Assembly (NCBI GenBank): GCA_030390025.1
Contig: CM059432.1
Coordinates: 78,432,001 to 78,496,000, forward strand
Direction: 5' to 3'
DNA length: 64,000 nt
DNA from: Squalus acanthias
Taxonomy: Eukaryota
The notes below the pieces were generated by a model. The model was not told where the DNA came from. It saw only the letters and a list, made by a program, of their open reading frames with translations, and searched no databases. The translations under genes were made by a program, and so were the position numbers. Of this stretch, positions 1 through 53,482 are shown piece after piece. Positions within the stretch are counted from its first letter, which is position 1. Every line of letters begins with the position of its first letter.

Positions 1-155
1 CAGGCAAAAGGGGTTAAGGGTTACGGAGAGAAGGCGGGGACGGGATACTGAATTGGAGGATCAGCCATGATCTCATTAAATGACGGAGCAGGCTCGAAGG
101 GCAGGATGGCCTACTCCTGCTCCTATCTTCTATGTAATCTATGTAATCTATGTAA
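1..155 (+). mobile_element. CR1 LINE 3' end (runs off window start)
   Basis: GATCAGCCATGATCTCATT..GGAGCAGGCTCGAAGGGC..GGCCTACTCCTGCTCCTAT 3'UTR followed by a (TATGTAATC)n tail, matching other CR1 ends in the window. Confidence 0.9.
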
Positions 156-3100
156 ATACAATGGGAAGAGTTCCTCTGGTCGCTATCGATAGAGATCGTA
201 AACACAATGGGAAGAGTTCCTCTGGTCACTATCGATTGCGATAGTAAATACAATGGGAAAAGTTCCTCTGGTCACTATCGATAGAGATAGTAAACACAAT
301 GGGAAGAGCTCCTCCAGTCACTATAGAACGAGATAGTAAACACAATGGGAGGAGCTCCTCTGATCATTATAGATAGAGATAGTAAACACAATGGGAAGAG
401 TTCCTCTGGTTACTATCGATAGAGATAGTAAACACAATGGGAAGAGTTCCTCCGGTCACTATAGATAACGATGGTAAACACAATAGGAAGAGTTCCTCTG
501 ATCACAATCGATAGAGATAGTAAACACAATGGGAAGAGCAAATCTAGTCACTATCGATAGAGATAGTAAACACAATGGGAAGAGTTCTTCCGGTCACTAT
601 AGATAGCGATAGTAAACACAATGGAAAGAGTTCCTGCAGTCAGTATAGATAGTGATAGTAAACACCATGCGAAGAGTTCGGCTGGTCACGATCGATAGCG
701 ATAGTAAACACAATGGGAAGAGCTCCTCAGGTCACTTTAGATAACGATAGTAAACACAATTGGTAGAGTTCCTTCTGTCACTATTGATAGAGATAGTAAA
801 CACAATGGGTAGAGTTCCTCCGGTCATTATAGATAGAGATAGTAAACACAATGGGAAGAGCTCCTCTGGTCACTTTCGATAGGGATAGTAAACACAATGG
901 GAAGAGTTCTTCCGGTCAGTATAGACAGCGATAGTAAACACAATGTCAAGAGTTCGGCTGGTCACTATTGATAGAAATAGTAAACACAATGGGAAGAGTT
1001 CATTTGGTCACTATAGATAACGATAGTAAACACAATTGGTAGAGTTCCTTCGGTCACTATCGATAGAGATAGGAAACACAATGGGTAGAGTTCCTTCGGT
1101 CACTATAGATAGAGATAGTAAACACAATGGGAAGAGTTCCTACGGTCACTATTGATAGAGATAGTAAGCAAAATGGGAAGTGTTTCCCCGGTCACTATAG
1201 ATAACGATAGTAAATACAATGGGAAGAGTTCCTCTGGTCACTATCAATAGAGATCGTAAACACAATGGCAAGAGTTCCTCTGGTCACTATCGATAGCGAT
1301 AGTAAATACAATGGGAAGAGTTACTCTGGTCACTATCGTTAGAGATAGTAAACACAATGGGAAGAGATCATCCGGTCACTATAGATAGAGATAATAAACG
1401 CAATGGGAAGAGTTACTCTGATCATTATATATAGAGATAGTAAACACAATGGGAAGAGTTACTCTGGTCACTATCGTTAGAGATAGTAAATACAATGGGA
1501 AGAGTTCTTCCTTCACTACAGATAGAGATAGTAAACACAATGGGATGAGCTCCTCTGCTCACTATAGATAGAAATAGTAAACATGATGGGAAAATCCTCT
1601 GGTCACTATAGACAGAGATAGTAAACACAATGGGAAGAGTTCCTCCGGTCACTATAGATAACGATAGAAAACACAATGGGAAGAGTTCGTATGGTCACTA
1701 TAGGTAGCGCAAGTAAACAAAATGGGAAGAGTTTCTCTGATCACTACCGATAGAGATAGTAAACATAATGGGAAGAATTCCTCTGGTCACTATCGATAGC
1801 GACAGTAAACACAATGTGAAGAGTTCCTCTGGTCACTATAGATGGTGATAGCAAACATCAATTGGTAGTGTTCCTTCGGTCACTATCGATAGAGATAGGA
1901 AACACAATGGGAAGAGTTCCTCTGGTCACTAAAGAAAGAGATAGTAAACACAATGGGAAGAGCTCCTCCGGTCACTATAGATAACGATAGTAAACACAAT
2001 GGGAAGAGTTCCTCCGGTCATTATAGATAGAGATAGTAAACACAATGGGAAGAGTTCCTCTGGTCACTGAAGAAAGAGATAGTAAAATCAATGGGAAGAG
2101 TTCCTCTCGTCACTATAGATAGAGATAGTAAACACAATGGGAAGAGTTCCTCTGGTCACTATAGATAGTGCTAGTAAACAAAATGGGAACAGTTCCTCTG
2201 GTCACTAAAGAAAGAGATACTAAACACAATGGGAAGAGCACCTTCGGTCACTATCGATAGAGATAGTAAACACAATGGGAAGAGCACCTTCGGTCACTAT
2301 CGATAGTGATAGTAAACACAATGGGAAGAGCTCCTCCGGTCACTATAGATAGAAATAGTAAACACAATGGGAAGTGTTCCTCTGGTCACTAACGATAGAG
2401 ATAGTAAACACAATGGGAAGAGTTCCTCCGGTCACTATAGATAGAAATAGTAAACACAATGGGAAGTGTTCCTCTGGTCACTAACGATAGAGATAGTAAA
2501 CACAATGGGAAGAGTAATTCCGGTCACTATCGATAGCAATAGTAAACAAATGGGTAGAGCTCCTCAGGTCACTATAGATAACGATAGTAAACACAATGGG
2601 AAGAGTTCCTCCGGTCATTATAGATAGAGATAGTAAACACAATGGGAAGAGTACTTCCGGTCACTATAGACAGCAATAGTAAACAAATGGGAAGAGCTCC
2701 TCAGGTCACTATAGATAACAATAGTAAACACAATGGGAAGAGTTCCTCCGGTCATGATAGATAGCGTTAGTAAACACAATGGGAAGAGTTCTTCTGCTCA
2801 CTACAGATAGAGATAATAAACACAATGGGAGGAGCTCCTCTAGTCATTATAGATAGAGATAGTAAACACAATGGGAAGAGTTCCTCTGGTCACTATTGAT
2901 AGAGATAGTAAACATAATGGGAAGAGTTCCTCTGGTCACTATAGATAGTGATAGTAAACACAATGGGAAGAGCTCCTCCGGTCACTAAAGAAAGAGATAG
3001 TAAACACAATGGGAAGAGTTCCTCTGGTCACTAAAGAAAGAGATAGTAAACAAAATGGGATGAGTTCCTCCGGTCACTATAGCTAGAGATAGTAACCACA

Positions 3101-5412
3101 ATCGGAAGAGTTCCACTGGTCATTATAGACAGAGATAGTAAACACAATGGGAATATTTCCTCCTGTCACTATAGATAGAGATAGTAAACACAATGGGAAG
3201 AGTTCCTCTGGTCACTATTGATAACGATAGTAAACACAATGGGAAGAGTTCCTCCGGTCACTATCGATAGAGATAGTAAACACAAGGGAAATATTTCCTC
3301 CTGTCACTATAGATAGAGATAGTAAACACAATGGGAAGAGTTCCTCTGGTCACTATTGATAGCGCTAGTAAACAAAATGGGAAGAGTTCCTCCGGTCACT
3401 ATAGATAGAGATAGTAACCACAATCGGAAGAGTTCCACTGGTCATTATAGACAGAGATAGTAAACACAATGGGAAGAGCTCCTCCAGTCACTATAGATAA
3501 CGATAGTAAACACAATGGGAAGTGTTCCTCTGGTCACTAAAGAAAGAGATAGTAAACACAATGGGAAGAGTTCCTCCGGTCACTATCGATAGAGATACTA
3601 AACACAATGGGAAGAGCACCTTCGGTCACTATCGATAGAGATAGTAAACACAATGGGAAGAGTTCCTCTGCTTACTATCAATAGTGATAGTAAACACAAT
3701 GGGAAGTGTTCCTCTGGTCACTAACGATAGAGATAGTAAACAAATGGGAAGAGCTCTTCAGGTCACTATAGATAACGATAGTAAACACTATGGGAAGAGT
3801 TCCTCCGGTCATGATAGATAGCATTAGTAAACAAAATGGGAAGAGTTCCTATGGTCACTATAGACAGCGATAGTAAACACAATGGGAAGAGCTCCTCTGG
3901 TCATTATAGATAGTGATAGTAAACACAATGGGAAGAGCTCCTCCGGTCACTAAAGAAAGAGATAGTAAACACAATGGGAAGAGTTCCTCCGGGCACTATA
4001 GATAACGATTGTAAACCCAATGGGAAGAGTTCATCTGGTCACTAAAGAAAGAGATAGTAAACACAATGGGAAGAGTTCCTCTGGTCACTATTGATAGCGC
4101 TAGTAAACAAAATGGGAAGAGTTCCTCCGGTCACTATAGATAGAGATTGTAACCACAATCGGAAGAGTTCCACTGGTCATTATAGACAGAGATAGTAAAC
4201 ACAATGGGAAGAGTTCTTCCGGTTACTATCGCTAGAGATAGTAAACACAATGGGAAGAGTTCCTCCGGTCACTATAGATAGAGATAGTAACCACAATGGG
4301 AAGAGAACCTCTGGTCACTATCGATAGAGATAGTAAACACAATGGGAATATTTCCTCCTGTCACTATAGATAGAGATAGTAACCACAATCAGAGGAGTTC
4401 CACTGGTCATTATAGACAGAGATAGTAAACACAATGGAAGAGTTACTCCGGTCACTATCGATAGAGATAGTAAACACAATGGAAAGAGTTCCTCTGGTCA
4501 CGATAGATAGAGCTAGTAAACTCAAGGGAAGAGTTACTCTGGTCACTATAGATAGAGATAGTAAACACAATGGGAAGAGTTCTTCTGGTCACTATAGATA
4601 GAGATAGTAAGCACAATAGGAAGAGTTACTCCAGTCACTATAGATAGAGATAGTAAACGCAATGGGAAGAGTTCTTCCAGTCACTATCGATAGAGATAGT
4701 AAACACAAGGGAAGAGTTCCTGTGGTCACTGTAGAGAGAGATAGTAAACACAATGGGAATATTTTCTCTGGTCACTATAGATAGCAATGGTAAACACAAT
4801 GGGAAGAGCTCCTCCGGTCACTATAGAGAGAGATAGTAAACACAATGGGAAGAGTTCCACCGGTCACTATAGATGGAGATAGTAAACAGAATGGGAATAT
4901 TTCCTCTGGTCACTATTGATAGAGATAGTAAACACATTGGGAAGAGTTCCTCCGGTCACTATCGATAGAGATAGTAAACACAAGGGAAGAGTTCCTGTGT
5001 TCACTGTAGAGAGAGATAGTAAACACAATGGGAATATTTCCTCAGGTCACTATAGATGGAGATAGTAAACAGAATGGGAATATTTCCTCTGGTCACTATA
5101 GATAGCGATGGTAAATGCAATGGGAAGAGCTCCTCCGGTCAGTATAGAGAGAGATAGTAAACACAATGGGAAGAGTTCCTCTGGTCACTATGGATAGAGA
5201 TAGTAAACACAATGGGAAGAGAACCTCTGGTCACTATAGATAGCGATAGTAAACACAATGGGAAGAGTTCCTCTGGTCATTATAGACAGAGTTAGTAAAC
5301 ACAATGGGAAGAGTTCCTTTGGTCACTATTGATAGAGATGGTAAACGCAATGGGAAGAGTTCCTCCGGTCACTATAGATAGAGATAGTAAACGCAATGGG
5401 AAGAGCTCCTCT
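152..5412. repeat. Tandem satellite, 46-bp unit (consensus ATAGTAAACACAATGGGAAGAGTTCCTCTGGTCACTATAGATAGAG), roughly 114 copies
   Basis: ACAATGG recurs at 158, 204 and onward with period 46 until ~5412; units differ by scattered substitutions. Confidence 0.98.
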
Positions 5413-6644
5413 GAATGCTACTGATGGCAAATTGTAAACTATTCTTTCGAATGTTTTTCTATGCATTTTTCTCCCTTCCCTCTTGAAAGCATTGACTCCT
5501 TGCTGGGTGTATGGATTGCTCACATTATTTGTGAGCCATGATGATGAGTCAGCAGTGTATGTATCCATTTGTTTAAACCATGACCAATCCTGTTCACACT
5601 TTACATCCACATATTTCCAGCTGGCGATTCTGGATAGTAGTCTGGAGTTGAAATCCTGACTGATTTTCCCCTCTTCATCCAGGGTAGGAGCCCAATTTTA
5701 GAGATGTCCTGGTGAAGATCACCTAACTCTACATGAAACAGGAATCAAAGCATGGAACCTTCCAGGTCTCCTGGCTGAACTGGTCACTGAATAAACTCGT
5801 TAAATTATTTGGGAACCCTTTAAATTAATTATTTGAAAATACCCAACCTTTACAATTGCATAAAACTAACCATAAGTTTTTGTTGCTCTTTCATCCCTTG
5901 AGCCAGAGACAATCATACTCTGAGAGTGTGATTTAAAAAAAGTGATTTGTTTTAGGGTATGATTTAACAGTTAGCCATAGTAAAACCATTTGTAGCTGGG
6001 ATATTAACTATGCAGAATACTGTTCTACTGGTGGATTTATAATCTCAAGGTATCAGTCACAGCAAATTCTGTTTGGCTTAATTAGAAAACAAAGTAGATT
6101 TGCACACAAAGTGACACCAATGCAGATATTTTTTGATAGAATCTGTTTCTAGATGTGGATGTGAGATTAACTAAATTATTGATGCAAAAAAGACATCTTT
6201 GATTCACTCTGCTTGAATGAGTCAATTAGATCATTGCATTATTATTTTGAAATAAATAGAAGATTTGTTAACAGTTATTTCACGTCAATCAGAATGTGAC
6301 GTATTTAAAGTATATAAAATGTGCTGAGATCAAAGAGTTCTGCAAAGTAAGATGACCCTTTCATTAAATCCATTGCATTTGAAATATGTTAATGAACAGA
6401 GAATAACAGCTGTTATCAGTTTTAATTTCATGAATAATTTCTTATCAGAAATAAATAATTGTACTTTTCAACACTTGTTATATTTAATATGTGTAATTCT
6501 TCATAAATAAAAACAACCAATTAATTTATAGCTTTGTTTTTGAATGAGGAAGCAGCATTGCGATATCATAATGCTATGATTGAAATTGAATGATTTTAAT
6601 CTAGCAAAATACCAATAATATTTTCATTAATATCTGTATTTAGA

Positions 6645-21634: not shown

Positions 21635-24134
21635 TTTCCAGGTGAAACAGCGATTTACTTGTACTTCTTACAATTTAGTATACTGTATTCGCTGCTCACG
21701 ATGCGGTCTCCTTTACATTGGGGAGACCAAACGCAGATTGGGTGACCGCTTTGCGGAACACCTCCGTTCAGTCCGCAAGCGTGACCCCGAGCTTCCGGTC
21801 GCCTGTCACTTCAATTCTCCACCCCACTCCCACTCTGACCTCTTCATCCTCGGCCTCTTACATTGTTCCAATGAAGCTCAACGTAAGCTTGAGGAACAGC
21901 ACCTCATAGAAACATAGAAAAATAGGAGCAGGAGTAGGCCATTCGGCCCTTCGAGCCTGCTCCGCCATTCAATATGATCATGGCTGATCCTCTATCTCAA
22001 TACCATATTCCCACTCTCTCCCCATACCCCTTGATGCCTATTGTGTCTAGAAATCTATCTATCTCCTTCTTAAATATATTCAATGACTTGGCCTCCACAG
22101 CCTTCTGTGGCAGAGAATTGAAGAAATTTCTCCTCATCTCAGTCCTAAATGTCCTACCCCGTATCCTGAGACTGTGACCGCTCATTCTAGACCCCCAGCC
22201 AGGGGAAACATCCTCCCTGCATCCAGTCTGTCTAGCCCTGTCAGAATTTTATACGTTTCAATGAGATCCCCTCTCATTCTTCTAAACTCTAGTGAATACA
22301 GGCCAAGTCGACCCAATCTCTCCTCATATGACAGTCCTGCCATCCCAGGAATCAGAGTGGTGAACCTTCGCTGCACTCCCTCTATGGCAAACTTGGAAAT
22401 ATTACATTTGGTTCCCTCATCCAAATCATTGATATATATTGTGAATAGCTGGGGCCCAAGCACTGATCCCTGCGGTACCCCACTAGTTACCGCCTGCCAC
22501 CCCAAAAAAGACCCATTTATTCCTACTCTCTGTTTCCTGTCTGTCAACCAATTTTTAATCCATGCCAGTATATTACCCCCAATCCCATGTGCTTTAATTT
22601 TGCACACTAACCTCTTATGTGGGACATTATCAAAGGCCTTCTGAAAATCCAAATACACCACATCCACTGGTTCTCCCTTATCTATTCTACCAGTTACATC
22701 CTCAAAAAACTCCAGTAGGTTTGTCAAACACGATTTCCCTTTCATAAATCCATGTTGACTTTGTCTAATCCCGTTGATATTTTCTAAGTGTCCTGTTATC
22801 ACATCCTTTATAATAGACTCTAGCATTTTCCCTACTACTGATGTTAGGCTAACCGGTCTGTAGTTCCTGTTTTCTCTCTCCCTCCTTTTTTAAATAGTGG
22901 GGTTACATTTGCCACCCTCCAATCTGCAGGAACTGTTCCATAATCTATAGAATTTTGGAAGATGACAACCAATGCATCCACTATTTCCATGGCTACCTCT
23001 TTTAGTACTCTGGGATGCAGATTATCAGGCCCTGGGGATTTATCGGCTTTCAGTCCCATTAATTTCTCCAGCACTATTTTTTACAAATATTAATTTCCTT
23101 TCATTCCTCCTTCTCACTAGACCCTTGGTTCCCTAGCATTTCTGGGAAGTTATTTGTGTCCTCTTCCACGAAGACAGAACCAAAGTATTTGTTTAATTGC
23201 TCTGCCATTTCCTTGTTCCCCATTATAAATTCTCCCGTTTCTGACTGTAAGGGACTTACATTTGTCTTCACTAATCTTTTTCTTTTTATATACTTGTAGA
23301 AGCTTTTACAATCCGCATTTATGTTCCTTGCAAGTTTACTCTCATACTCTATTTTCCACTCTTAATCAATTTCTTGGTCCTTTTTTGCTGAACTCTAAAC
23401 TGCTCCCAATCCTCAGCCTTGCTACTTTTTCTGACAACTTTATATGACTCCTCTTTAGATCTAATACTATCCTTCATTTCTTTTGTTAGCCATGGTTGGG
23501 CCACTTTTCCTTTTGTGTTTTTGTGCCAGAAAGGAATATATAACTGTTGCAATTCATGCATTCGTTCTTTAAATGTTAGCCATTGCCTATCCACCGTCAT
23601 GCCTTTTAATGAAGTTCCCCAATCTATCATAGCCAACTCACTCCTCATACCTTCGTAGTTTCCTTTGTTTAGATTTAGGACCCTAGTTTCGGATTGGACT
23701 TCTTCACTTTCCATCTTAATGAAGAATTCTATCATGTTATGGTCACTCTTCCCTAAAGGACCCCGCACAACAAGATTATTAATTAACCCCTTCTCATTGC
23801 ACAATACCCAATCTAGGACAGCCTGTTCCCTAGTTGGCTCCTCAAGGTACTGGTGTAAAAAACCATCTCGTACACACTCCAGGAATTCATCCTGCACAGT
23901 ATTATTGCTAATTTGGTTTGGCCTGTCTATATGTAGATTAAAGTCATCCATGATTACTGTAGTGCCCTTGTTACATGCATCTCTAATTTCCTGTTTGATG
24001 CCATCCCCTACATTACCACTACTGGTTGGAGGCCTATAGACAACTCCTACCAATGTTTTCTGCCCCTTGGTGCTTCTTAGCTCCACCCAGACTGATTCTA
24101 CATCTTTATTTTCTGAGCCAATATCCTTTCTCAC

Positions 24135-24352
24135 TGACATGAATCTTGTCATTCATGTATGAAGTAATACTGGGCAGCCTGCTGGTGGTGCTGTCCAGGG
24201 AGAGTATAAATACTCGGGCATAGGCCCAGTTTGCTTAGGACATTCCTCAACAGGAACTAGTGAAGGACACAACCAGATCTCCATGTTGATAAACAGTTGA
24301 TTAAAGCTTTGTTTAACGCTTAGACCAAGTGCCTAGTAGTTTTCTTACGTCA
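24135..24352 (+). repeat. 5' LTR (218 bp)
   Basis: TATAAATA at 24205, ATTAAA at 24300; 8 substitutions versus the 3' LTR by eye. Confidence 0.97.
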
Positions 24353-24418
24353 ATTTAATCAACTGGTCCTGCTCCACGCTCTGAGTAGAAGGGAACCAGA
24401 TATAGTAATCAATCCATC

Positions 24419-27400
24419 ATGGAGAAACTACTCCGACCCACTCGTCTTGATCTGGACCCGAATTCACCTACAACTGCTAAGGTATGGAAACACTGGTATC
24501 GTACCTTCAGCAACTACCTCAGGGCATGTGGTGAGAATGTTCCTGATAAGTTAGAGATACTTGCCAATTATGTATCCCCTTATGTATTTGACTATATCGA
24601 AGACTGTGTAAACTATGACTCCGCTATCCGAATACTACAGCAACTATATGTTAAGGCCCCAAACGAAATTTTTGCTTGGCATCTACTGGCCACAACTCAA
24701 CAACAACCCGGGGTATCACTTGACGAATTCCTTCAAAAGCTTCGCAGGCTCAGCAAAGATTGTAATCTCAAGGCTGTCTCAGCTGAGTAGTACCAGGAGG
24801 AGTTAATTCGTGATTCTTTTATTAATGGAATTGCATCTCCCTTCATACGCTAGCATCTGCTGGAGAATAAAACCCTCGAGTTACAAACTGCCTATGACCA
24901 GGCATATTCTCTGGACTTGGCAAAAAGAAATGCAGATGCCTATCTTTTACCACGTGCACGGACTGCTGCCATCACTTTTAGTGACTCCTCCGATAAGCCT
25001 CAGCTGGAAGCCCTCACTGATGACGACTCTATCCTAGCTGATGACGACCCTACCCTAGCGGCATCTTGGCAATCTAAAAGTAAGTGTTTCTTTTGTGGAG
25101 GTGCATTTCATTATAGGAAATTTTGTCCTGCTCGTAATGCAATCTGCAATCATTGTAGTAAGAAAGGCCACTTCTCGAAAGTATGTCAGTCAAGAGCCTC
25201 TTCTAGGGTTACAGCTGCTCCCTATAAAACTGCTCCTCCCCCAAGAGCCACTACCAATGTTACAGCTGTCATCTATAAAACTGCTCCTCCCCCAAGAGCC
25301 ACTACTAATGTTACAGCTGTCAAGGAGAAAACTGCCCCTCCTCCCATCACAGCTGTTTTTCCCCAAACCCTGTTCCATGCAGCCATGAATGTTTCGGTAA
25401 ATGGACACATTTTGAGTGCATTAATCGACTCATGCAGCTCTGACAGCTTCATCAGTAAGCAGGCTGTCAGTAAGTTAAAACTGCGTATTTACCCCTCGGA
25501 CAGGGAAATTGCAATGGCTCTGACGACACTGACCACTAACTCTTCCGGCTTTTGTCTTGTCGACCTTATTCTCAATGGCCGCATTTATTTCTCCACCCGG
25601 CTCGGGGTGCTCAAAAACCTATGCAGTGATGTGCTCCTGGGACAGGATTTCCAGAAACAACACAAAAGACTCACTTTCGAGTTTGGAGGATCAAAGCCGG
25701 AGCTTACTATTTCCAAAGTACCATTTTGTGCACTTTCGGCGGCTTCGCTCGATGAGCCCTCCTTGTTTGCCAATCTTTCCCCCCGATGTAAGCCCATAGC
25801 CACTAAATCACGACGTTTCAGCCAAGATGATCTATCCTTTATCGAGGCAGAGATCTCTCGCCTTCTAGCTGACGGTATCATTGAGCCATGTTCATCTTCC
25901 TGGCGGGCTCAAGTCGTCGTTGTTAAAAATCCTCTGAAGCAACACAAGAAACGTCTTTGCATCGATTACTCGCAAACTATTAACCAGTATACCGACCTGG
26001 ATGCCTACCCACTACCACGCATCGATGACATGGTCAATAACCTTGCTAACTACAAGGTATTTCCAACTTTTGACTTAAAGAGCGCATAACATCAAGTACC
26101 GTTAAAGGACTCTGACAAAAAAGTATACGGCTTTTGAGGCCAATGGTCGGCTTTACCAGTTTCGTCGCCTTCCATTCGGGGTCACCAATGGGGTAGCCGT
26201 CTTTCAACGGGCAATGGATAGCCTAGTCAAATAGGAGAACTTAACAGACGCTTTTCCATATCTGGATAATATCACCATTGCTGGTCATGACCAGAAGGAG
26301 CATGATGCCAATCTCCAGAAATTTCTTGACGTTCTCCGTCGTCGCAACTTAACCTTAAATGAGTCCAAATCTGTGAAATCAGTACCATCAGTCAACATCC
26401 TTGGTTACTGGGTGGGTAATGGTGTCATCAAACCGGATCCAGAGCGACTTCGTCCGCTTCAGGAGCTCCCTCCTCCTACGAATCTCAGCTCTCTTCGTCG
26501 GGCCCTCGGCATAGAAACATAGAAACATAGAATCTAGGAGCAGGAGTAGGCCATTCGGCCCGTCGAGCCTGCTCCACCATTCAATACGATCATGGCTGAT
26601 CATCCAAATCCAGTACCCTGTCCCTGCTTTAATCCCCACAGTACACATATCCCACCCTACCCCCGTAACCCCACGTATTTAATTCCCCCTAACATATCCC
26701 ATCCTATCCCCATAACCCCACATATTTAATCCCCCCCTAACACTAAGGGTCAATTTATCATAGCCAAATCAACCTAACCCGCACATTTTTGGACTGTGGG
26801 AGGAAACCGGAGCACCCGGAGGAAACCCACGCAGACACGGGGAGAATGTGCAAACTCCACACAGACAGTCACCCGAGGTCAGATTCGAACCCGGGTCCCT
26901 GGCGCTGTGAAGCACCAGTGCTAACCACTATGCCACCGTGTTGCCCATTATGCGAAGTGGCTACCTCACTTTTCCGACAAGATCCAGCCCCTGCTTCACG
27001 CGAAGTCATTTCCGTTGGAGGCGAGGGCTATTTCAGCTTTCGACCTCCTCAAGCAACAACTGGAAAAAGCAGCGCTTCATTCCATCGATGAAAATCTCCC
27101 TTTCATGGTCAAGTGCAATGCATCGGAGGTGGCGATCTCGGCTACCTTGAATCAAGGCGGTCGACCCGTTGCATTTCTGTCTAGAACTTTGCAGGGTAGC
27201 GAGCTCCATTATCCTCCTGTTGAGAAGGAGGCTACGGCTATCATCGAAGCAGTACGTAAATGGAGTCATTTTCTCGCCCGTCGCCATTTCACGCTCATAA
27301 CCGATCAGCGCTCGGTGGCCTTTATGCTGGATAACCGGAAACGCACTAAAATCAAGAATAACAAAATACAGCTCTGGAGGATGGAATTGGCCGCCTTTGG

Positions 27401-28655
27401 CTACACCATCCAGTATCCACCCGGCAAGGAGAATGTGGCCCCGGATACCCTCACGCGTGCATTCTGCTCTTCCATGTCAACTTCGACTCTTGTGGATCTT
27501 CATACTGACTTATGCCATCCTGGCGTTACCCGTATGTTGCACTTTGTGCGATCTAAAACTCTCCCATTTTCTACGGAAGACGTGAAAAGAACATGCTCCA
27601 CTTGTAGAATTTGCGCAGAATTAAAACCGCAATTTTTCCGTCCGTCGGATGGCTCGCTCATACACGCTACACAGCCTATGCAGCGACTCAGCATTGACTT
27701 TAAAGGGCCATTGCCTTCCTCAATGCGAAACACCTACTTGCTTACTATGGTGGACGAATATTCACGCTTTCCCTTTGCTTTCCCCTGTCCCAATATGCTT
27801 ACTTCCACAGTGATCAAATGCCTCGATCAGGTCTTTTCCCTCTGCGGTACGGCCAATTTCATCCAATCTGATCGGGGTCCCTCCTTCATGTCAAGCGAAC
27901 TCAAAAGTTATCTTTCCCAACAGGGAATCGCCACAAGTAAAACGACACCGTATCATCCTATTGGAAACGGACAGGTTGAGAGATACAACGCTATCATTTG
28001 GAATGCTGTTCGTCTTGCACTGAGGTCACGCAATCTCCCAGACCAGCAGTGGGAAACCATGCTCCCTGATGCGTTGCATTCCATCAGGTCTCTTCTTTCT
28101 ACATCCACCAATGTTACTCCTCACGAACGATTCTTCGGGTTCCAGCATCGCTCCACTCATGGGATGTCTCTACAATCATGGTTGGCAGCTCCTGGCTCCG
28201 TGCTGCTCTGAAGATTCGTCCGATCCTCCAAGAGTGATCCCCTCGTCGACAAGGTGGAACTAACGGATGTCAATCCTACATATGCGTACGTGCGGTACCC
28301 TGATGGCCGGGAGTCCACAGTTTCACTTCGGGATCTGGCTCCCTGCCCAACCGGTCCCACGGACCCAATCAATAGAGAGATCCGTATTAACGACGCCGAT
28401 ACTCCGCGCTCCTCCGAGGATGACGCCCTACCTAGGACATCAAGGGATCTGCCAGCTACTCCGCTGGATCAACCCGGGGAACAGAGCGCTCCCTGCGGGA
28501 TGGCCACCCGAAGCCAGGACGCCGGTCAATCACTGGCTACTGAGCAGGATGAAGCCCGCTCTGCACCGGTGGGGACCCGCACCCAGAGCCACGATCTCCC
28601 CAGTCCCCCTCAGGTCGATCAAGGCGATACGGACTTTGCCAGCCCGCCAGTATGA
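24419..28655 (+). pseudogene. Gypsy gag-pol (gag with two Cys/His knuckles, protease, RT, RNase H, integrase); stops, frameshifts and a SINE insertion
   Basis: CFFCGGAFH..C / CNHCSKKGHFSKVC, LIDSCS, RLCIDY, DLKSA, PFG, YLDNI, EKEATAI, TDQRS, HHCC, IDFKGP, QSDRG, GNGQVER. Confidence 0.95.
26509..26946 (-). mobile_element. HE1/V-SINE-type tRNA SINE with CR1-derived tail, inserted in Gypsy pol
   Basis: Minus-strand head CACGGTGGCATAGTGGTTAGC..GGGTTCGAATC, V-domain GTGTGGAGTTTGCACATTCTCCCCGTG..CCGGTTTCCTCCCACAGTCC, CR1 3'UTR and (TATGTTTC)n. Confidence 0.9.
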
Positions 28656-28800
28656 ACCAAGCGACCCAGGGACCAAAACACGGTCCGAGGAGAGGTGCCT
28701 TCCGGCCTCCAATGGAAATCCAAACGACTGCGTCTATTCTTAGTCCGGCTAATTCGGTAGAAGGAAGCCGCCGGACTTCCAATCTTTCAGCCGGGAAGAA

Positions 28801-29018
28801 TGACATGAATCTTGTCATTCATGTATGAAGTAATACTGGGCGGCCTGCTGGTGGCGCTATCCAGGGAGAGTATAAATACTCGGGCATGGGCCCAGCTTGC
28901 TTAGGACATTCCTCAACAGGAACTAGAGAAGGACACAACTAGATCTCCATGTTGAAAAACAGTTGATTAAAGCTTTGTTTAACGCTTAGACCAAGTGCCT
29001 AGTAGTTTTCTTACGTCA
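28801..29018 (+). repeat. 3' LTR (218 bp)
   Basis: Direct repeat of 24135-24352. Confidence 0.97.
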
Positions 29019-30332
29019 CTCACTATTGCTCTGATTTCATCCATTACTAACGCCACCTGACCTCCTTTTCCTTTTTGCCTGTCCTTCCCAAATATCGAAT
29101 ATCCTTGGAAATTCAGCTCCCAGCCTTGGTCACCCTGCAGCCATGTCTCCGGAATCGCAATTATATCGTATCAGTTTACATCTATTTGCGCTGTTAATTC
29201 ATCTACCTTATTATGAATGCTTTGTGCATTCAGATACAGAGCCTTCAGATTTGTCTTTTTAATATTTTTAGACATCTTAACATTTTTTTGTACTATGGCC
29301 CTACTTGTCTTATTACCATTTTTTCTTACCCGGACCCTATTTGATAGTGCAGTCCTTTGTTTGTACGCTCTGTCCCTTCCTGACACAATCTGGTTATCCT
29401 TACCCCAATCACTTTCCTGCATTGCTTCCTTGTCTTTTCTCTTTAGCATTCGAGATTTCTCTCCACCAGGACCCTCCCCCCCCCCCCCCCCTTATTTACT
29501 TTAAAGCCCTATCTGCCTCCCTAGTTATTCGATTCGCTAGAACTCTGGTCCCAGCATGGTTCAGGTGTAGTCCGTCCCAACGGAACAGCTCTCTCTTTCC
29601 CCAATACTCGTGCCAGTGCCCCACGAATCGAAACCCACTTCTCCCACACCAATCTTTGAGCCACGCATTCATCTCCCTGATCCTATTGACCCTATGCCAA
29701 TTTGCTCGTGGCTCTGGTAATAATCCAGAGATTATGACCTTTGTGGTTCTGCTTTTTAATTTAGTCCCTAGCTGCTCAAACTCTCTCAGCAGAACCTCTT
29801 TCTTTGTCCTACCTATGTCGTGGTACCTACGTGGACCACAACAACTGGATCCTCCCCTTCCCACTCCAAGTTCTTCTCCAACCCGGAGGAGATGTCCTTT
29901 ACCCTGGCACCAGGTAGGCAACATAGCCTTCGGGACTCACGCTCCTGGCTGCAGAGAATGGTGTCTATCCCCCTAACTATACTGTTAGGGGGATAAACCC
30001 TAACATTCTATTAGGCACTTTACAGCCTTCTGGACTTAACATCAAGTTCAACAATTTCAGACTATGAATTGGCCCCTGCATTTCTTTATATATTTTTTTC
30101 ACTTCTTTCCTCACATGGTAGCTGTTAATATTGCTGCCATCATCATTCACACATCATCTCGAGCCATCTTTTGTTTCTTAACTTGTCCCATTACCATCTC
30201 CTTTTGCCTTGCACTATCATCCCTTTTGTCAGTCAATCTCTCCTGCCTTCCAGCCTATCACAGACCTTCCCTTTGTTCTTTCCTCCCCTCCTCCCTGCCC
30301 CTGCTTAAAAATCTCTCTTCCCTAACCTTTTC

Positions 30333-30641: not shown

Positions 30642-33600
30642 ACAGAGGCGGCGGGCCTGGGTGGAGCGGCTGCGGCGAGGCGGAGCAGATAAAAGAGGCG
30701 GTGGCGACCAGGTAGGCTTACCAATCTGAGCCCCCAGAGCGGGAGAGAGAGAAGTAAAAAATAATCAAAGTGTGACGTCACCAGAAAGCAGGTAAGTGTG
30801 TGGTTGGTGAGTATTTCTCTTTTTCTCCATTTTCCAAACTTAAATTTTTTGGTTTATAGTTTCTAGGGTCTCTGTGGTGTAGCGGGGACAGTTGGTAAAC
30901 AAGGGCCCTATATCATTTAATTATAGTATAATTGGTGGGATTGATTTGATATAATTTAAGTTCAATTAATTAAAGGGTAAGTCATGGCAGCACAGCTCGG
31001 CGCTGTGCTATGCTCCTCCTGCGCTATGTGGGAAATCGGGGACACTTCCTGTGTCCCTGACGACCATGTGTGCGGGAAGTGTATCCAGCTGCAGCTACTG
31101 GCAGACCGCATTGCGGCGCTGGAGCTGCGAATGGATGCATACTGGAGCATTCGCGATGCTGAGGACCTCGTGGATAGCACGTTTAACCAGTTGGTCACAC
31201 TGCAGGTAAAGGCTGCACAGGCAGAAAGAGAATGGGTGACCACCAGGCAGAGTAGTAGGCGCAGGCAGGTAGTGCAGGAGTCCCCTGTGGACATCCCCCT
31301 CTCAAACAGATATACCGCTTTGTAAGTGGGCAGAGATTTGGCAGATGGAATACAACACTGGAAAGTGTGAGGTGATGCACTTTGGCAGGAAAAATCCTAG
31401 AGCAATTTATTATCTTAATGGCAAGAAACTGGAGAGTACTGAAGTGCAAAGGGATCTGGGGGTCCTGGTGCACGAAACTCAAAAGGTTAGTATGCAGGTG
31501 CAGCAAGTGATTAAGAAGGCAAATGGAATGTTGGCTTTCATTGCTAGGGGGATAGAATATAAAAATAGGGAGGTATTGCTTCAGTTGTACAAGGTATTGG
31601 TGAGACCGCACCTGGAATACTGCATACAGTTTTGGTGTCCTTACTTAAGGAAAGACATCCTTGCTCTCGAGGCAGTGCAAAAAAGGTTCACTCGGTTAAT
31701 CCCGGGGATGAGGGGGCGGTCATATGAGGAGAGGTTGGGTAGATTGGGACTCTACTCATTGGAGTTCAGAAGAATGAGAGGCGATCTTATTGAAACATAT
31801 AAGATTGTGAAGGGGTTGGATCGGGTGGATGCGGGGAGGATGTTCCCGATGACGGGTGAGACGAGAACTAGGGGACATAGTCTTAGAATAAGGGGCTGCT
31901 CTTTCAAAACTGAGATGAGGAGGAACTACTTCACTCAGAGGGTGGTAGGTCCATGGAATATGCTGCCACAAAAAGCTGTAGAAGCTACAACATTAATTAA
32001 ATTTAAAACAGAAATAGACAGTTTCCTAGAAGTAAAGGGCATTAAGGGTTACGGGGAGCGGGCAGGAATTTGGACATGAGTCTAGGTTCGGATCGGTCAT
32101 GGCCCTGTGGTTAGTGGAGCGGGCCCAGGGACTGTGTAGCCTGATTCTGCTCCTATTTCGTGTGTGCAATTCTGGTAGATGCAGGAGATGGTTCTGTGAT
32201 AGATTGTAGATTGGCGGTTAGGATCAGATCAGCCATGATCTTATTGAATGGCGGAGCAGGCTCGAGGGGCCGATTGGCCTACTCCTGCTCCTATTTCTTA
32301 TGTTCTTATGTTCTTATACTGTTGAGAGGGATGGCTTATCAGGGGAAGGCAGCAGCAGCCAAATTCCTGGCACCAGGGGTGGTTCTGCTGCACAGGACGG
32401 GAGGAAAAAGAGGGGTAGAGCTATAGTGATAGGGGATTCTATTGTACGGGGAATGGATAGGCGTTTCTGCGGCCGCAAACGAGACTCCAGGATGGTGTGT
32501 TGCCTCCCTGGTGCAAGGGTCAAGGATGTCTCAGAGCGGCTGCAAAACATTTTGGAAGAGGAGAGTGAACAGCCAGTTGCCGTGGTGCATATAGGTACCA
32601 ACGATATAGGTAAAAAACGGGATGAGGTCCTAAAAGCTGAATATAGGGAGTTAGGAGATAAATTAAAAAATAGGACCTCAAAGGTAGTAATCTCAGGATT
32701 ACTACCAGTGCCACGTGCTAATCAGAGTAGAAATAGAAGGATATTTCAGATGAATACGTGGCTAGAGGAATGGTGCAAGGGGGAGGGATTCAAATTCCTG
32801 GGACATTGGAACCGGTTCTGGGGGAGGTGGGACCAGTACAAATCGGACGGTTTGCCACCTGGGCAGGACCGGGACCGATGTCCTTGGGGGAGTGTTTGCT
32901 AGTCCTCTGGGGGGGGGGCTTAAACTAAAATGGCAGGGGGTTGGGAACCTGAGCAGGGAGACAGAGGAAAGGGAAACAAAAATAGAAGCAAAAGTCAGGA
33001 AGGAAAAAAACAAAGGTGTCAGTCAGAGAAATCAAGGGTTAAAATCAAACGTGGCCACAGTAAAAAAAAATTCTAAAAGGTCTAAGAGCGTTAAAAAAAC
33101 AAGCCTGAAGGCTTTGTGTCTTAATGCGAGGAGCATTCGTAATAAGGTGGATGAATTAGCTGCGCAAATAGAGGTAAACGAATATGATATGATTGGGATT
33201 ATGGAAACATGGCTCCAGGGTGACCAAGGCTGGGAACTCAACATACAGGGGTATTCAATATTCAGGAAAGATAGGCAAAAAGGAAAAGGAGATGGGGTAG
33301 CATTGCTGGTTAAAGAGGGGATTAACACAATTGTAAGGAAGGATATTAGCTCTGATGATGTGGAATCTGTATGGGTAGAACTGAGAAATATCAAGGGGCT
33401 GAAAACGCTAGTGGGAGTAGTGTATAGACCCCCAAACAGTAATATGGAGGTTGGGGATGGCATTAAAAGGGAAATTAGAGAAGCGTGCAATAAGAGCACA
33501 GCAGTTATCATGGGCGACTTTAATCTACATATAGATTGGGCTAACCAAATTAGTAACAATACTGTGGAGGTGGAATTCCTGGAGTGTATTTCCTGGACCA

Positions 33601-35977
33601 ATATGTCGAGGAACCAACTAGAGATCAGGCCATCTTAGACTGGGTATTATGTAATGAGAAAGGATTAATTAGCAATCTTGTTGTGCGAGGCCCCTTGGGT
33701 CGGAGCGATCATAATATGATCGATTTCTTCATTAAGATGGAGAGTGAAGTAGTTGACTCAGAGACTAGGGTCCTGAATTTAAATAAAGGAAACTACGATG
33801 GTATGAGGCGCGAGTTGGGTAGGATTGATTGGGGAATATCACTCAAAGTGTTGACGGTGGAGAGGCAATGGCAAGCATTCAAAGATCGCATGAATGAACT
33901 ACAGAATTTGTTCATCCCAGTTTGGCATAAAAATAAAACAAAAAAGGTGACTCAACCGTGGCTAACAAAGGAAATTAGGGACAGCATAAGATCCAAGGAA
34001 AGGACATATAAATTGGCCAGAAAAAGCAGAAAACCTGAGGATTGGGAGCAGTATAGGATTCAGCAAAGAAGGACAAAGGGATTAATTAAGAGGGGGAAAA
34101 TAGAGTATGAGAGTAAGCTTGCGAGGAACATAAAAACTGACTGTAAAAGCTTTTATAGATATCTGAAGAGAAAAAGATTGGTGAAGTCAAGCGTAGGTCC
34201 CTTGCAGTCAGAATCAGGGGAATTTATAATGGGGAACAAAGAAATGGCAGACCAATTAAATACATACTTTGGTTCTGTCTTCACAAAGGAGGACACAAAT
34301 AACCTCCCAGAGATGTCGGGGAACATAGGGTCTAATGAGAAGGAGGAACTGAAAGAAATCAGTATTTGTAGGGAAATAGTGTTAGGGAAATTGACGGGAT
34401 TGAAGGCCGATAAATCCCCAGGGCCTGATAATCTACATCCTAGGGAACTTAAGGAAGTGGCCCTAGAAATAGTAGATGCATTGCTGGTCATCTTCCAAAA
34501 TTCTATAGACTCTGGAACAGTACCCATGGATTGGAGGGTAGCTAATGTTACCCCACTATTCAAAAAAGGTAGTAGAGAGAAAACAGGGAATTATAGACCA
34601 GTAAGCCGGACATCGGTAGTGGGGAAAATGCTAGAGTCCATTATAAAAGATGTAATAGCAGAGCACTTGGAAAACAGTGACAGGATCGGACAAAGTCAAC
34701 ATGGATTTACAAAAGGCAAATCGTGCTTGACTAATCTACTGGAATTTTTTGAGGATGTAACTGGTAAAATGGATAAGGGAGAACCAGTGGATGTGGTGTA
34801 TTTGGACTTTCAGAAGGCTTTTGATAAGGTCCCGCATAAGAGATTAGCGTGTAAAGTTAAGGCACATGGGATTGGGGGCAAGGTATTGACTTGGATAGAG
34901 AACTGGTTGGCAGACAGAAAGCAAAGAGTTGGAATAAATGGGTCTTTTTCCGAGTGGCAGGCGGTGACTAGTGGGGTACTGCAGGGATCGGTCCTAGGAC
35001 CCCAGCTATTCACAATATATATTAATGATCTGGACGATGGAATTGGATGTAATATCTCCAAGTTTGCAGACGACACAAAGCTGGGTGGGAGTGTGTGCCA
35101 TGAGGAGGATGCCGAGAATCTCCAGTATGATTTGGACAGGTTGGGTGATTGGGCAGAAGCATGGCAGATGCAATATAATGTGGATAAATGCGAGGTTATC
35201 CACTTTGGTGTCAAAAACAGGAAGGCAGATTATTATCTGTATGGCAATAGATTGGGAGAAGGGGAAGTGCAACGAGACCTGGGTGTCCTTGTGCACCAAT
35301 CTGAAGGTAAGCATGCAGGTGCAGCAGGCGGTTAAGAAGGCAAATGGTATGTTGGCCTTCGTAGCGAAAGGGTTCGAGTACAGGAACAAGGATGTCTTGC
35401 TGCAGTTGTACAGGGCCTTGGTGAGACCACATCTTGAGTATTGTGTGCCGTTTTGGTCGCCTTATGGAGGGAGTGCAGCGAAGATTCACCAGGCTGATAC
35501 CCGGGATGGCAGGAATGGCGTATGAGGAGAGATTGTGTCGATTGGGGTTATACTCACTGGAATATAGATGAATGAGAGGGGATCTCATTGAAACTTATAA
35601 AATTCTAACAGGACTAGACAGACTAGATGCAGGAAGGATGTTCCTGATGGCCGGGGAGTCCAGAACCAGGGGTCAGAGTCTAAGGATAAGGGGTAAGCCA
35701 TTTAGGACTGAGATGAGGAGGAATTTCTTCACCCAGAGAGTGGTGAACCTGTGGAATTCTCTACCACAGAAGGCAGTAGAGGCCAATTCATTAAATATAT
35801 TCAAGAAGGAGTTAGATATATTTCTTAAAACTAAAGGGATCAAGGGATATGGAGAGAAGGCAGGGACAGGGTACTGAATTTGGATGATCAGCCTTGATCT
35901 CATTGAATGGCGGAGCAGGCTCGAGGGGCTGAATGGCCTACTCCTGCTCCTATCTTCTATGTTTCTATGTTTCTATG
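30642..35977 (+). mobile_element. Near full-length CR1 LINE (GC-rich 5'UTR, ORF1 zinc finger/leucine zipper plus esterase, ORF2 EN-RT), decayed
   Basis: ORF1 from 30984 CSSC..CGKC..LQLLADRIAALEL, GDSIVRG/GTND esterase, ORF2 LNARSIRNK..SKFADDTKL..WNSLP, (TATGTTTC)n tail. Confidence 0.95.
31322..32315 (+). mobile_element. 5'-truncated CR1 inserted in ORF1 of the previous CR1
   Basis: ORF2 C-terminus 31345-32079 and its own (TATGTTCT)n tail; host ORF1 NRYTAL resumes as TVERDGLSGE. Confidence 0.93.
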
Positions 35978-41989: not shown

Positions 41990-43204
41990 TTAAGCAAATC
42001 TGGCTAAGATGAGTGCATCCCTTGCATCCCGGGCAGCAATGTGCTCGCGTGCTGCTGCAGCTGGTTGATGCGCATCCGCAAGGTCTTTGTTCTCATTCTC
42101 CTCCTCCTCCTCCTCCTCCTCCTCCTCCTCCTCCTCCTCCTCCTCCTCATCTGAGGAGGCTATGCGCTGAGCCAATTGTTCCTCAGGCAGCTGCAAGCCA
42201 CGATGCCGTGCAATGTTGTGCAGTGCACAGCAGACCACGACGATTCTGAATCGCATCTTCAGCAAGCCGATGGTTTGCTCGATAATGAATCTGGTCGAAA
42301 TGTGGCTGGAGTTGTAGCGCTCCTCAGCTTCGTTGGATGGCCTCCTGACCGGTGTCATTAGCCACGTCTTCAGGGGATAGCCCTTGTCTCCAAGTAGCCA
42401 TCTGCAAAGTTGGTCTGGCGGACTGAAGAGCGGAGGCACACTAGACTGCCGCAGGATGAACGAGTCATGGCAACTGCCAGGGTACTTGGCGCAAACATGC
42501 AAAATGTCCTTGTGGTTACACACCAGCTGCAGGTTGAGGGAGTGGAAGCCCTTGCGGTTGACAAAAAGAACTGGGTTGTGATGGGGTGTCTTAAGGGCCA
42601 CATGTGTGCAGTCAACGACGCCCTGCACCATTGGCAAGCCTGCCATATTTGCAAAGCCAACCACATGCATGGTTATACTTGCTTGATCCGTGGAGAAGTT
42701 TATGTAATTGTGGGCCTTTGCAAAGAGGGCATCGGTAACCTGCGTGATGCAAGTGTGTGCAGCTGACTGGGAGATGCCGCTGATGTCTGCTGATGATCCC
42801 TGGAAGGAGCCTGAAGCAAAAAAGTTGAGTGCGGTGGTGACTTTGACAGACACTGGTAAGAGGTGTTCACCCGCTCCTCTGGGCTCCAGGTGTTGGTGCA
42901 GCATTGCGCAGATGTCACCGCCTACCTCTCGCGAAAGTCTCAGCCTCCTTTGGCACTGCTGCTCACTCATGTTGAGGAAGCTCATCCTCATCCTGTAAAC
43001 CCTGTTTTGGAGGTATCTCCTGCGGCGATGTACTTCCCTGAGCTGGCGCCTTCTGCCCTGTGCACCATCAGGTGGGTGAGCAGCAGGTTGGCGCTCCTGT
43101 TGTTGGTGCTGTTGGTGCTGCTGTTGTGCCTGGTGCTGCTGCTGCCGCGGCTGCTCGTCCTCCGAATCTGAGGACCAGGATGAAAGGAAATAAATGGTTC
43201 CCAT
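41990..43204 (-). CDS. Harbinger DDE transposase (HARBI1-like), open 404-aa ORF with an in-frame internal deletion
   Basis: [28 protein letters not shown] present; lacks the [18 protein letters not shown] segment found in H4. Confidence 0.85.
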
Positions 43205-44147
43205 GCTGCAGGTAGATACCTCAGTTGAGGAAGCGCTCAGTCAATGTGGGGAGAGGGTTTTCCCCAGGAGGTCACAGTGGAGATGGATCTCAGCTTCACC
43301 ACTTCCAAGATCATTGAATGTGCAAAAAGTTCTCCAAGATCTGAAAAAACAAAGTTCTGCCACCTGCAACTGATCCTTGTTGAAAGCTCCGTTTTTATGG
43401 TGGAGCTGCAGCTGTTAGGAAGCCAGCCACTTGTGAACCCGACAGGATAAGCTGCCGTGTTTTAGGAGAGCTGTGCAGCACGCTGAAAATGTGGCAAAAT
43501 TTGAAAGGCCTCTCAAAATGGGATTATAGAGGTAGTTAAGTGGTAGTTAAGTGCCTTAAGGGCCCATCCCGCCGCCTGGAGGCGCGACAGAAACTAAATC
43601 TGCAAGCCCACCTCTGGCGAAGTTGCGTGGAGGCGGGTTGATGGCGGATCGGAATTGGAGGTGTTAGCGCCGGCCATTAAGGCCCACTATGGAATAAAAA
43701 TACTGGCCACCTCACTTCCGCCTGCTGCCGGCAGTTCCCGTGGCGTCTGTCATTTTCGGCTGGGGGGTTGCGCTGCCGATGTCCACGCTCACTAGAGATA
43801 TGTAGATTATGCAGATCGTGACGTCAGTGAGCATGCAACGCTCACCTGATGCTCCATCTTCCATTTTCACATTCGCCGCTCCACTTACCAGCCTGTGTTA
43901 ATTACGACCAGCTAACCAAGCGTTCACAAGCAGGAAGGAGTTCCAGCAGCGCTATTTAAAAGGATCATCAGCAACAACTTGCAGCTGACATGGTTTTTCA
44001 GTTTGACTCGCTTTGTGTAACTTTCTGCAATTCTAGCAGCTTTCTAAACTTGCTTAAAGTTCCTAAGGTTACAGGTAGTGTTGGTGCAAGTGGAGAACAC
44101 CTTCATTCTTATTTAAAGGCTTCTGCTCACAACACTTGCTCACAGTC

Positions 44148-51545: not shown

Positions 51546-52214
51546 AAAGTATTTGTTTAATTTCTCGGCCATTTCCTTATTCCCCATTATAATTTCTCCT
51601 GTCTCAGCCTGTAAGGGACCCACATTCACTTTTGCTAATCATTTCCTTTTTACATACCTATAGAAGCTTTTACAGTCTGTTTTTATGGGCTGGATTTTGC
51701 CAGGCTCGAGGAGGCGGGTTTGGAGGCGTGTGAGTTGTTAAAATTGCAAAAAATGGCGGTCGGATCCGATCCCGCCTCCAGCCCGCCTCTGAGCAATTTT
51801 CCCACAATCGGTTTCAGACGTCGTTTCCATCCCGCCTCCAAGAGGCGGAATAGGCCCTTAAGGCCCTTAACAACCAGTTAAGTACCTCTATAATCCCATT
51901 TTGAGAGTCCTTTCTGAATTTAACACATTTCCCCTGTGCTGCACGTCTCCTCTGGAACACACCAGTGAATCCTGGCGGCCTCACAAGTGGATTGCTTACT
52001 AACAGCTGCAGCTCCACCATTAAAAAGGAGTTTTCAGCAATCATCATTTGCAGGTGGCAGAACTTTGTTATCTCAGGTCTGGGGGAACTTTTAGCAGGCA
52101 TACTCATTGTTGTGGAAGTTTGGAGCCCGAGACCCATCTCCAGTGTGACCTCCTGGGAAACCCTTCTCCCCACCTTGACTGAGCGCTTCCTCAACTGAGG
52201 TATATACCAGAAGC

Positions 52215-53482
52215 ATGGGAACCATTTATTTCCTTTCCTCCTGGACATCAGATCCGAATGAAGACCAGCCACGGCAGCAGCAGAACCCTGAACAACAGCA
52301 GCACCAACAGCAGGAGCAACAACAGGAGCGCCAAGCTGCTGCTCACCCACCTGAAGCTGCACAGGCCAGAAGGCGCCAGCGCATGGAAGCACGTCGCCGC
52401 AGGAGATACCCCCAAAACAGGGTTTACAGACAGAGGATGAGCTACCTCAACATGACTGAGCAGCAGTGCCAAAGGAGGCTCAGACTTTCGCGAGAGGTAG
52501 TGGGTGACATCTGCGCAATGCTACAGCAAGACCTGGAGCCCAGAGGACTGGGTGGACACTCCTTACCAGTGGCCGTCAAAGTCACCACCGCACTCAACTC
52601 TTTTGCTTCAGGCTCATTCCAGGGATCAACAGCAAACATCAGCGGCATCTCCCAGGGGGCCGCACACACTTGCATCATGCAGGTTACCGATGCCCTCTTT
52701 GCCATCGCGCACAATTACATCAACTTCTCCAAGGATCAAGCAAGTGTAAGCGCGCGTGCGCTTGGATTTGCTAATCTGGCAGGCTTTCCAAGGGTGCAGG
52801 GCGTCGTTGACTGCACACATGTGGCCCTTCAGGCACCCCATCACAATCCAAGTATTTTTGTCAACTGCAAGGGCTTCCACTCCCTCAACCTGCAGCTGGT
52901 GTGTGACCACAAGAAGGAAATTTTGCATGCTTGCGCCAAGTACCCTGGCAGTTGCCATGACTCCTTCATCCTGCGCCAGTCTAGTGTGCCTCCGCTCTTC
53001 AGTCCGCCAGACCAACTTTTCGGATAGTTACTTGGAGACAAGGGCTCTCCCCTTAAGACGTGGCTAATGACGCCATTGAGGAGGCCATCCAACGAAGCTG
53101 AGGAGCACTACAACTCCAGCCACATTTCCAACAGATCCATAATCGAGCAAACCATCGGCTTGCTGAAGATGCGATTCAGATGCCTTGATAGATCAGGTGG
53201 AGCCCTGCAGTACTCAGTGGCTAGGGTCTAGATTCTATGTTTCTATGTTTCTATGTCTCCAGAATGGTCGTGGTCTGCTGTGCACTTCACAACATGGCAC
53301 AGCATTGTGGCTTGCAGCTGGCTGAGGTACAAGTGGCTGATCGCATAGCCTCCTCAGATGAGGAGGAGGAGGAGAGCGACAACGAACAGCTTGCGGAGGC
53401 GCATCAACCAGCGGCAGCAGCACGCGAGCACATTGCTGCCCGGGAGGCAAGGGATGCACTCATCGTGGCCAGATTTGCTTAG
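52215..53482 (+). pseudogene. Harbinger DDE transposase with a premature stop (53025) and a CR1-tail micro-insertion
   Basis: Close homolog of the H2 transposase; [39 protein letters not shown]. Confidence 0.93.

Follow-up and report, generated by a model that had tools for sequence, protein, structure and literature searches.

Covarying complementarity between the LTR and the primer position suggests self-priming in an animal Gypsy clade without a chromodomain

A Gypsy element of Squalus acanthias carries, directly behind its 5' LTR, a short sequence complementary to its own LTR at the position where a primer would bind, and diverged relatives preserve this complementarity by compensatory change. 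The duplex is a real, conserved feature. Judging from sequence comparison, we propose that this family and its relatives would prime reverse transcription in the manner of Tf1, with the LTR arm acting as primer after a predicted cut, and we give this reading a probability of roughly 0.65. Self-priming of any form we consider highly probable. The same inference had been drawn in the preliminary description from a single copy, and it is now supported both by pairing kept through compensatory change and by the lack of any tRNA 3'-end match longer than 1 nt.

The element occupies positions 24135-29018 on the plus strand of the window, by which we mean the whole stretch of 64,000 nucleotides analysed. 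Its 218-bp LTRs (5' LTR 24135-24352; 3' LTR 28801-29018) run from TG to CA, with ends common to 30 genome loci, and are 96.3% identical (210/218 positions, 8 differences). The insertion is flanked by the target-site duplication CTCAC (24130-24134 and 29019-29023), and a polypurine tract at 28793-28800 ends in AA before the 3' LTR. A single gag-pol region, from 24419 to approximately 28760, encodes two CCHC knuckles, protease, RT, RNase H and integrase. In the window copy it is interrupted by stops, frameshifts and one insertion, marking a decayed copy. The 426-bp insertion of other repeats in the RT/connection part (26513-26938, no strand assigned) is missing from copy L137, and its first 90-120 bp are seen eight times in the window. 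The RT catalytic motif at 26259-26270 reads YLDN and not YxDD; by pattern match in 110 close relatives, its fourth residue is N in 85 and D in 17, with no call in 8. The protease-RT-RNase H-integrase order, the TG..CA LTRs, the purine tract and the target duplication place the element in Ty3/Gypsy, and its closest solved-structure match is Ty3 Gag-Pol. The preliminary description saw no chromodomain; Pfam agrees, with no Chromo domain in the open pieces of the window, in the full-length relatives P0015 and P0031, or in seven deep clade members. Rfam gave no match over the element. The leader of the window copy lacks, at 24385-24388, about 30 nt that nearly all other copies have and that resemble a hairpin arm, and a 51-bp unit is repeated in 2.7 tandem copies at 25208-25346, between the knuckles and the protease.

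The features originally described at the primer position hold up on re-examination. The primer-binding position, 24354-24365, is the exact reverse complement of the LTR arm at 24294-24305, and the pairing gains no base on either side. The arm is the same in both LTRs (second copy at 28960-28971) and closes with ATTAAA (24300-24305), a single base, A24353, separates the LTR from the complement, and a TATAAA lies upstream at 24205-24210. As had been claimed, the 5' LTR is not followed by TGG, the first of which comes at +12. We rejected a tRNA site at that TGG (24364), which is 12 nt away from the LTR, occurs in 46 of 68 copies of the family and has no counterpart in a sister family described below. 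The expectation of finding the 12-mer in the LTR by chance, over four registers, is about 1e-4, and a chance match as the source of the complement is ruled out by the covariation and shuffles described below. The local fold is not unusually stable when compared with shuffles (z = -1.25), so we place the weight on position and covariation and not on folding energy.

We examined how well the duplex is kept within the family. Across the 3.7-Gb S. acanthias genome, an exact pattern for the LTR-leader junction matched 213 places; among 73 loci examined, the junction was present in 72, and 68 were distinct. The perfect 12 bp is kept in 47 of these 68 copies. The duplex is imperfect in the other 21, three of them by a lost LTR or a parsing error and the rest by one-sided changes, and these 21 copies count against the self-priming reading. 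The same genome also holds the sister family, which is younger (LTR pairs 98-100% identical) and has a different LTR with a TATAAA at about the same distance. It forms a 13-bp duplex, in which the base preceding the invariant AG (24295-24296 in the window) is altered in both arms together.

More importantly, the pairing is found in far more diverged elements. A Gag alignment yielded 69 metagenome loci, many sharing contig-name prefixes and hence not independent hosts; we used the 52 whose match extended close to the start of Gag, together with the window family and the sister family. In 8 of 13 upstream clusters, a search anchored on a site 1-2 nt after a CA, with its partner 20-120 nt upstream, detected a duplex with a score of 12.5-16, which none of 40 shuffles reached in any of the eight. 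The five negative clusters, which speak against the self-priming reading, are L064, L072/076, L100, L102-105 and L116-120; by eye only, most look like truncated, replaced or decayed LTRs, with L064 and L102-105 unexplained. Upstream of Gag in L102, L103 and L105, two arms appear to be joined, with the intervening loop deleted. For L067/068, L093 and L094/097 a second LTR confirmed the LTR ends.

Ten families, represented by hand-picked, best-preserved copies with two clusters contributing two each, were placed in an ungapped alignment that begins at the duplex's inner end. Here 119 of 120 cells are paired (118 Watson-Crick and one G:U). Permuting the rows in 20,000 draws gave a mean of 93.9 and a maximum of 113 paired cells, a control that is not a probability because the families are related. 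Compensatory changes with two or three pair types occur in seven columns (3, 5, 6, 7, 8, 9 and 12), while the AG at columns 11-10 is invariant and a GC follows the arm in nine families. Pairing extends to column 12 or further in all ten, and the best pairing partner of the site is the element's own LTR in 9/10. The complementarity noted in one element is therefore kept in its relatives through compensatory change, in a fixed register.

We then compared the primer site with tRNAs. No TGG lies within 5 nt of the LTR in any of the ten families, and among 55 host tRNA calls, which do not cover the full set and were in part selected for this comparison, the best 3'-end pairing is 1 nt. The outcome was divided: conventional 3'-end priming finds no match, yet a D-arm fragment could pair with the site of the window family. 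Under one alternative, the primer would be the 5' part of tRNA-Thr(AGU) or tRNA-Ile(AAU) as far as the D-arm, and the LTR arm would just resemble it. At the window-family site such D-arms pair over 13 nt with two G:U, at -14.3 kcal/mol versus -13.9 kcal/mol for the self duplex, and host D-arms also pair with the sites of four further families (11-15 nt, one to five G:U). Moreover, the arm from its AG together with the following GC (24295-24307) matches the D-arm of the host tRNA-Thr(AGU) (L239:1492-1565) at 12 of 13 bases, a likeness that may reflect mimicry, ancestry or chance. Against a D-arm primer, the remaining five families reach at best 7-9 nt with these tRNAs as against 12-16 bp of self pairing, although those five come from other hosts and were compared with S. 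acanthias tRNAs. The site sequence also follows the element's own LTR, and the 12/13 match was spotted post hoc, where an initiator-like AGT beside a poly(A) hexamer could yield it by chance. On these sequence grounds tRNA fragments do not seem to explain the clade as a whole, and we regard a D-arm primer as very improbable, if still conceivable for the window family.

The arm is also tied to the poly(A) signal. A hexamer stands at its inner end in 8/10 families; L089 has AATAAA 8 nt outside its 15-bp duplex, and L094 has none. Masking of the 5' poly(A) signal by the duplex, as proposed earlier, could be a side effect, but the signal lies outside the duplex in L089 and is absent in L094. Alternatively, the duplex could serve regulation, as a hairpin by which the poly(A) signal is concealed in just the 5' LTR, with some other primer in use. 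The position of the hexamer in eight families fits such a hairpin, as does the fact that the partner arm exists solely behind the 5' LTR. In contrast, L089 keeps a long duplex with its signal outside and L094 keeps one with no signal at all, the register stays at 1-2 nt from the end of the LTR, the place where a primer must stop, and no alternative primer site is seen. We consider the hairpin improbable. In L069, L089, L091, L094 and L104, pyrimidine tracts followed by YAG, resembling splice acceptors, occur upstream of Gag at or just before the arm, and one such site in L104 is preceded by a GTATGT 46 nt upstream; an intron of small size within the LTR or a poly(A) upstream element could account for these sites. 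A primer made by splicing was considered and rejected, since the unspliced sequence already pairs and no RNA-type joint inside the LTR was found in public-run contigs, which show presence only and not starts.

A distinct line of evidence comes from aberrant insertions. We searched the genome for places where the LTR arm runs on into the LTR end in reverse-complement form and found 19 such fold-back loci of the window family and three of the sister family (two of them near-duplicates), with none for a reversed control pattern. Every fold-back contains the complement of the spacer base, which is present only behind a 5' LTR. Among the window-family loci, 12 of 19 have an exact 5-bp target duplication and three have one with a single mismatch. 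Three types were distinguished. Eight loci (type i) carry some 18-28 nt of inverted U5 before the normal LTR resumes, which it does at A24305 in six of the eight, five of these six without microhomology. In five loci (type ii) the whole LTR is inverted. In six loci (type iii), at different target sites, the inverted part is 70 nt long and stops at bases complementary to the TG at 24284. The aberrant side of types ii and iii mostly has integrase-like ends, so these two types likely formed before integration. The fold-backs with target duplications indicate that arm-to-site pairing was extended before integration.

The ends of these fold-backs offer two candidate coordinates, to be read with the caveat that integrase shows only ends with CA. 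Type i hints at a strand whose end was A24305, which a cut separating A24304 from A24305 would produce, although any switch within the arm yields the same junction, and DNA template switching at a quasi-palindrome could also produce type i. Such a cut would leave an 11-bp duplex and a 2-nt spacer (24353-24354) instead of 1 nt, in keeping with the AA in front of the 3' LTR and with L094, whose +2 base is unpaired; the +1 base is A in 10/10 families. Type iii hints at an uncut template whose 5' end lay one or two bases before 24284, which makes 24282-24284 a candidate RNA 5' end. The preliminary description had considered a start set by the TATA about 60 nt upstream of the primer. This now appears doubtful: TATAWA occurs in just four of ten families, 101-173 nt from the inner end of the duplex with about 200 nt searched, and the fold-back ends hint at a start near 24283 rather than at a TATA-set site.

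Taken as a pathway, Tf1-like self-priming would proceed as follows. Transcription would begin within the 5' LTR, with a probable start near 24283, and the RNA would then fold so that the arm pairs with 24355-24365. The RNA would be cut near 24304/24305, probably by the element's own RNase H, as judged by analogy to Tf1 only. The freed 3' end would then prime minus-strand DNA two bases from the LTR end, and the short strong-stop DNA would transfer via the 10-30 nt that separate the poly(A) site from the cut. Since plus-strand synthesis would copy the primer, each cycle would rewrite the primer site, which would explain the tight covariation.

Some features of the fold-backs fit this pathway poorly. 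The primer-side strand carries a full U3 in all 22 loci, four of which run on into internal sequence, and a short 5' primer fits this only with an extra strand transfer. Furthermore, six fold-backs copied an uncut arm, through to 24284, which counts against a cut primer; in two of these six, L284 and L292, the arm-flanking copies differ, and primer and template thus came from different LTR copies. These observations would be accommodated if the element primed itself from its 3' end, where the arm of the 3' LTR, trimmed or cut back to ATTAAA, would pair with the primer site of the same or a partner RNA and no cut in the 5' LTR would be needed. An arm that closes with a poly(A) hexamer in most families would suit such a primer as well. 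On the other side, resumption at A24305 in six of eight type i copies is what a cut 5' template would give, plus-strand strong-stop DNA mis-annealing to any arm copy explains the long fold-backs too, and we know of no precedent for self-priming from the 3' end. We think 3'-end priming unlikely, if slightly less so than the hairpin, and retain the cut 5' arm as the preferred primer.

Next, we sought to place the clade. Its members have in common an RT signature, DYSxTIN, and one ORF of roughly 1,200 aa, and lack GPY/F. Among the best 150 representatives, RT-RNase H identity to the sister family is 36-71% inside the clade and 28-34% outside. In the RT tree the clade is long-stemmed and forms one side of a 100/100 branch, apart from the Mag-like copies of the same genome and from a chromodomain-bearing RT. 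Members named at the protein level come from crustaceans, a snail, cnidarians, a nematode, a tunicate and a shark; the duplex evidence covers the S. acanthias families and the metagenome loci, these named relatives being known by protein. An Atlas search returned unnamed Gag-like clusters only, viral contigs yielded no relative, and none of the 16 Pfam Chromo matches in the genome lies beside an integrase, which left the tree with no chromovirus reference from S. acanthias itself.

The element had first been described as Mag-like, and this label is not supported. Mag-like elements of the same genome are 20-45% identical to it in RT pieces (mostly 24-32%) and group separately elsewhere in the tree with 100/99 support, the reference rows being ones that we take to be Mag from their RT motifs. 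The element resembles the Mag lineage in its two CCHC knuckles (seen in SURL) and in its 5-bp target duplication, the length typical of Mag, whereas the RTs are far apart. As to the suggested origin independent of Tf1/sushi, the clade is separate in the best tree, but sisterhood with chromodomain-type RTs is not rejected: constraining the clade with two chromo-type rows (one chromodomain row and one neighbour, the tree holding no named Tf1 or sushi sequence) costs 14.4 log units, with a p-AU of 0.116. An independent origin of self-priming is thus no more than possible.

Self-priming itself is an established mechanism. In passages of PMC7175516, PMC4600332 and PMC5341516, the primer sites of Tf1 and Tf2 of Schizosaccharomyces pombe and Tj1 of S. 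japonicus are described as complementary to their own 5' LTR RNA, and Tf1 as using an 11-base primer released by an RNase H cut (PMC7175516). Like these Tf1/sushi chromoviruses, as far as those passages describe them, the clade has no tRNA site and a primer site complementary to its own 5' LTR, with a duplex near 11 bp and a cut (here predicted) needed for primer release. Unlike them, it has no chromodomain or GPY/F module, and its RT belongs to a long-stemmed clade of its own. Its duplex of 12-16 bp usually ends in a poly(A) hexamer, in further distinction from Tf1, and whereas the Tf1 primer consists of the RNA's first 11 bases, the primer of the clade may carry about 11 extra unpaired 5' bases. 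Clade LTRs seen whole also differ from Tf1/sushi, measuring 210-280 bp with just 23-48 nt behind the arm. Self-priming has been predicted outside Tf1/sushi as well: a section of PMC6317226 gives LTR complementarity within 5 nt of the LTR end for plant Tcn1 (Gypsy) and TAR/Houba/Osr-1 (Copia). By that account their hosts are plants, Tcn1 being chromoviral and TAR a Copia element, which sets them apart from the present clade.

In domain features, the clade comes close to Cigr-1 of Ciona intestinalis, whose row in supplement 3 of PMC2774666 lists two CCHC knuckles, a lost GPY/F, no chromodomain and an integrase after RNase H, all shared here. In contrast to that row, the protease flap pattern TANG is absent from seven clade protease regions. 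Parts of PMC6238403 and PMC8556966 report the Cigr-1 clade in molluscs and annelids, and a motif search of the supplements and full text of four papers gave no named Cigr-1 reference. By feature description, our clade is possibly Cigr-1. The length of its single ORF is likewise that of the Cigr-1 ORF, about 1,200 aa. We found no description of self-priming in this clade in the literature searched, which included portions of PMC5006619 (Skipper), PMC8220671, PMC12471100, PMC13524379 and PMC3601003. Subscription papers, Repbase, the GyDB pages and the original Cigr-1 paper lay outside this scope. Self-priming of Cigr-1 has reportedly perhaps been suggested already, which would lower the novelty here. 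In the papers searched, we met neither self-priming of this clade nor its link with the poly(A) signal nor the two candidate coordinates; the mechanism itself is known from Tf1.

Considered jointly, these observations would also allow a wider picture, which we hold to be less likely than not. A large, old, non-chromoviral animal Gypsy clade may have evolved self-priming independently, with the poly(A)-signal arm as primer, so that a single duplex would serve priming and at the same time conceal the 5' signal. A tRNA D-arm may be the ancestor or the model of this arm, and both the cut at 24304/24305 and an RNA start at about 24283 may be recorded in aborted genomic products. Self-priming has been shown experimentally for Tf1 and predicted mostly for its chromoviral kin. 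If the same holds for a widespread animal clade that lacks a chromodomain, it would inform the questions of which is older, tRNA priming or self-priming, and how frequently the one gives way to the other. Such elements would have no need of host tRNA and would evade control by tRNA 3' fragments. Annotation that demands a tRNA site misses them, and the fold-backs supply two concrete coordinates, one for the cut and one for the start.

Other repeats surround the element in the window. It is inserted in a minus-strand LINE-type element (22185-24152) with endonuclease and RT pieces, and plus-strand LINE-type endonuclease and RT frames lie at 32766-35335. Two DDE_Tnp_4 transposase frames, at 41990-43240 and 52179-53027, are presumably Harbinger-type. 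A satellite at 152-5413 consists of about 115 copies of 46-bp units with 84% matches.
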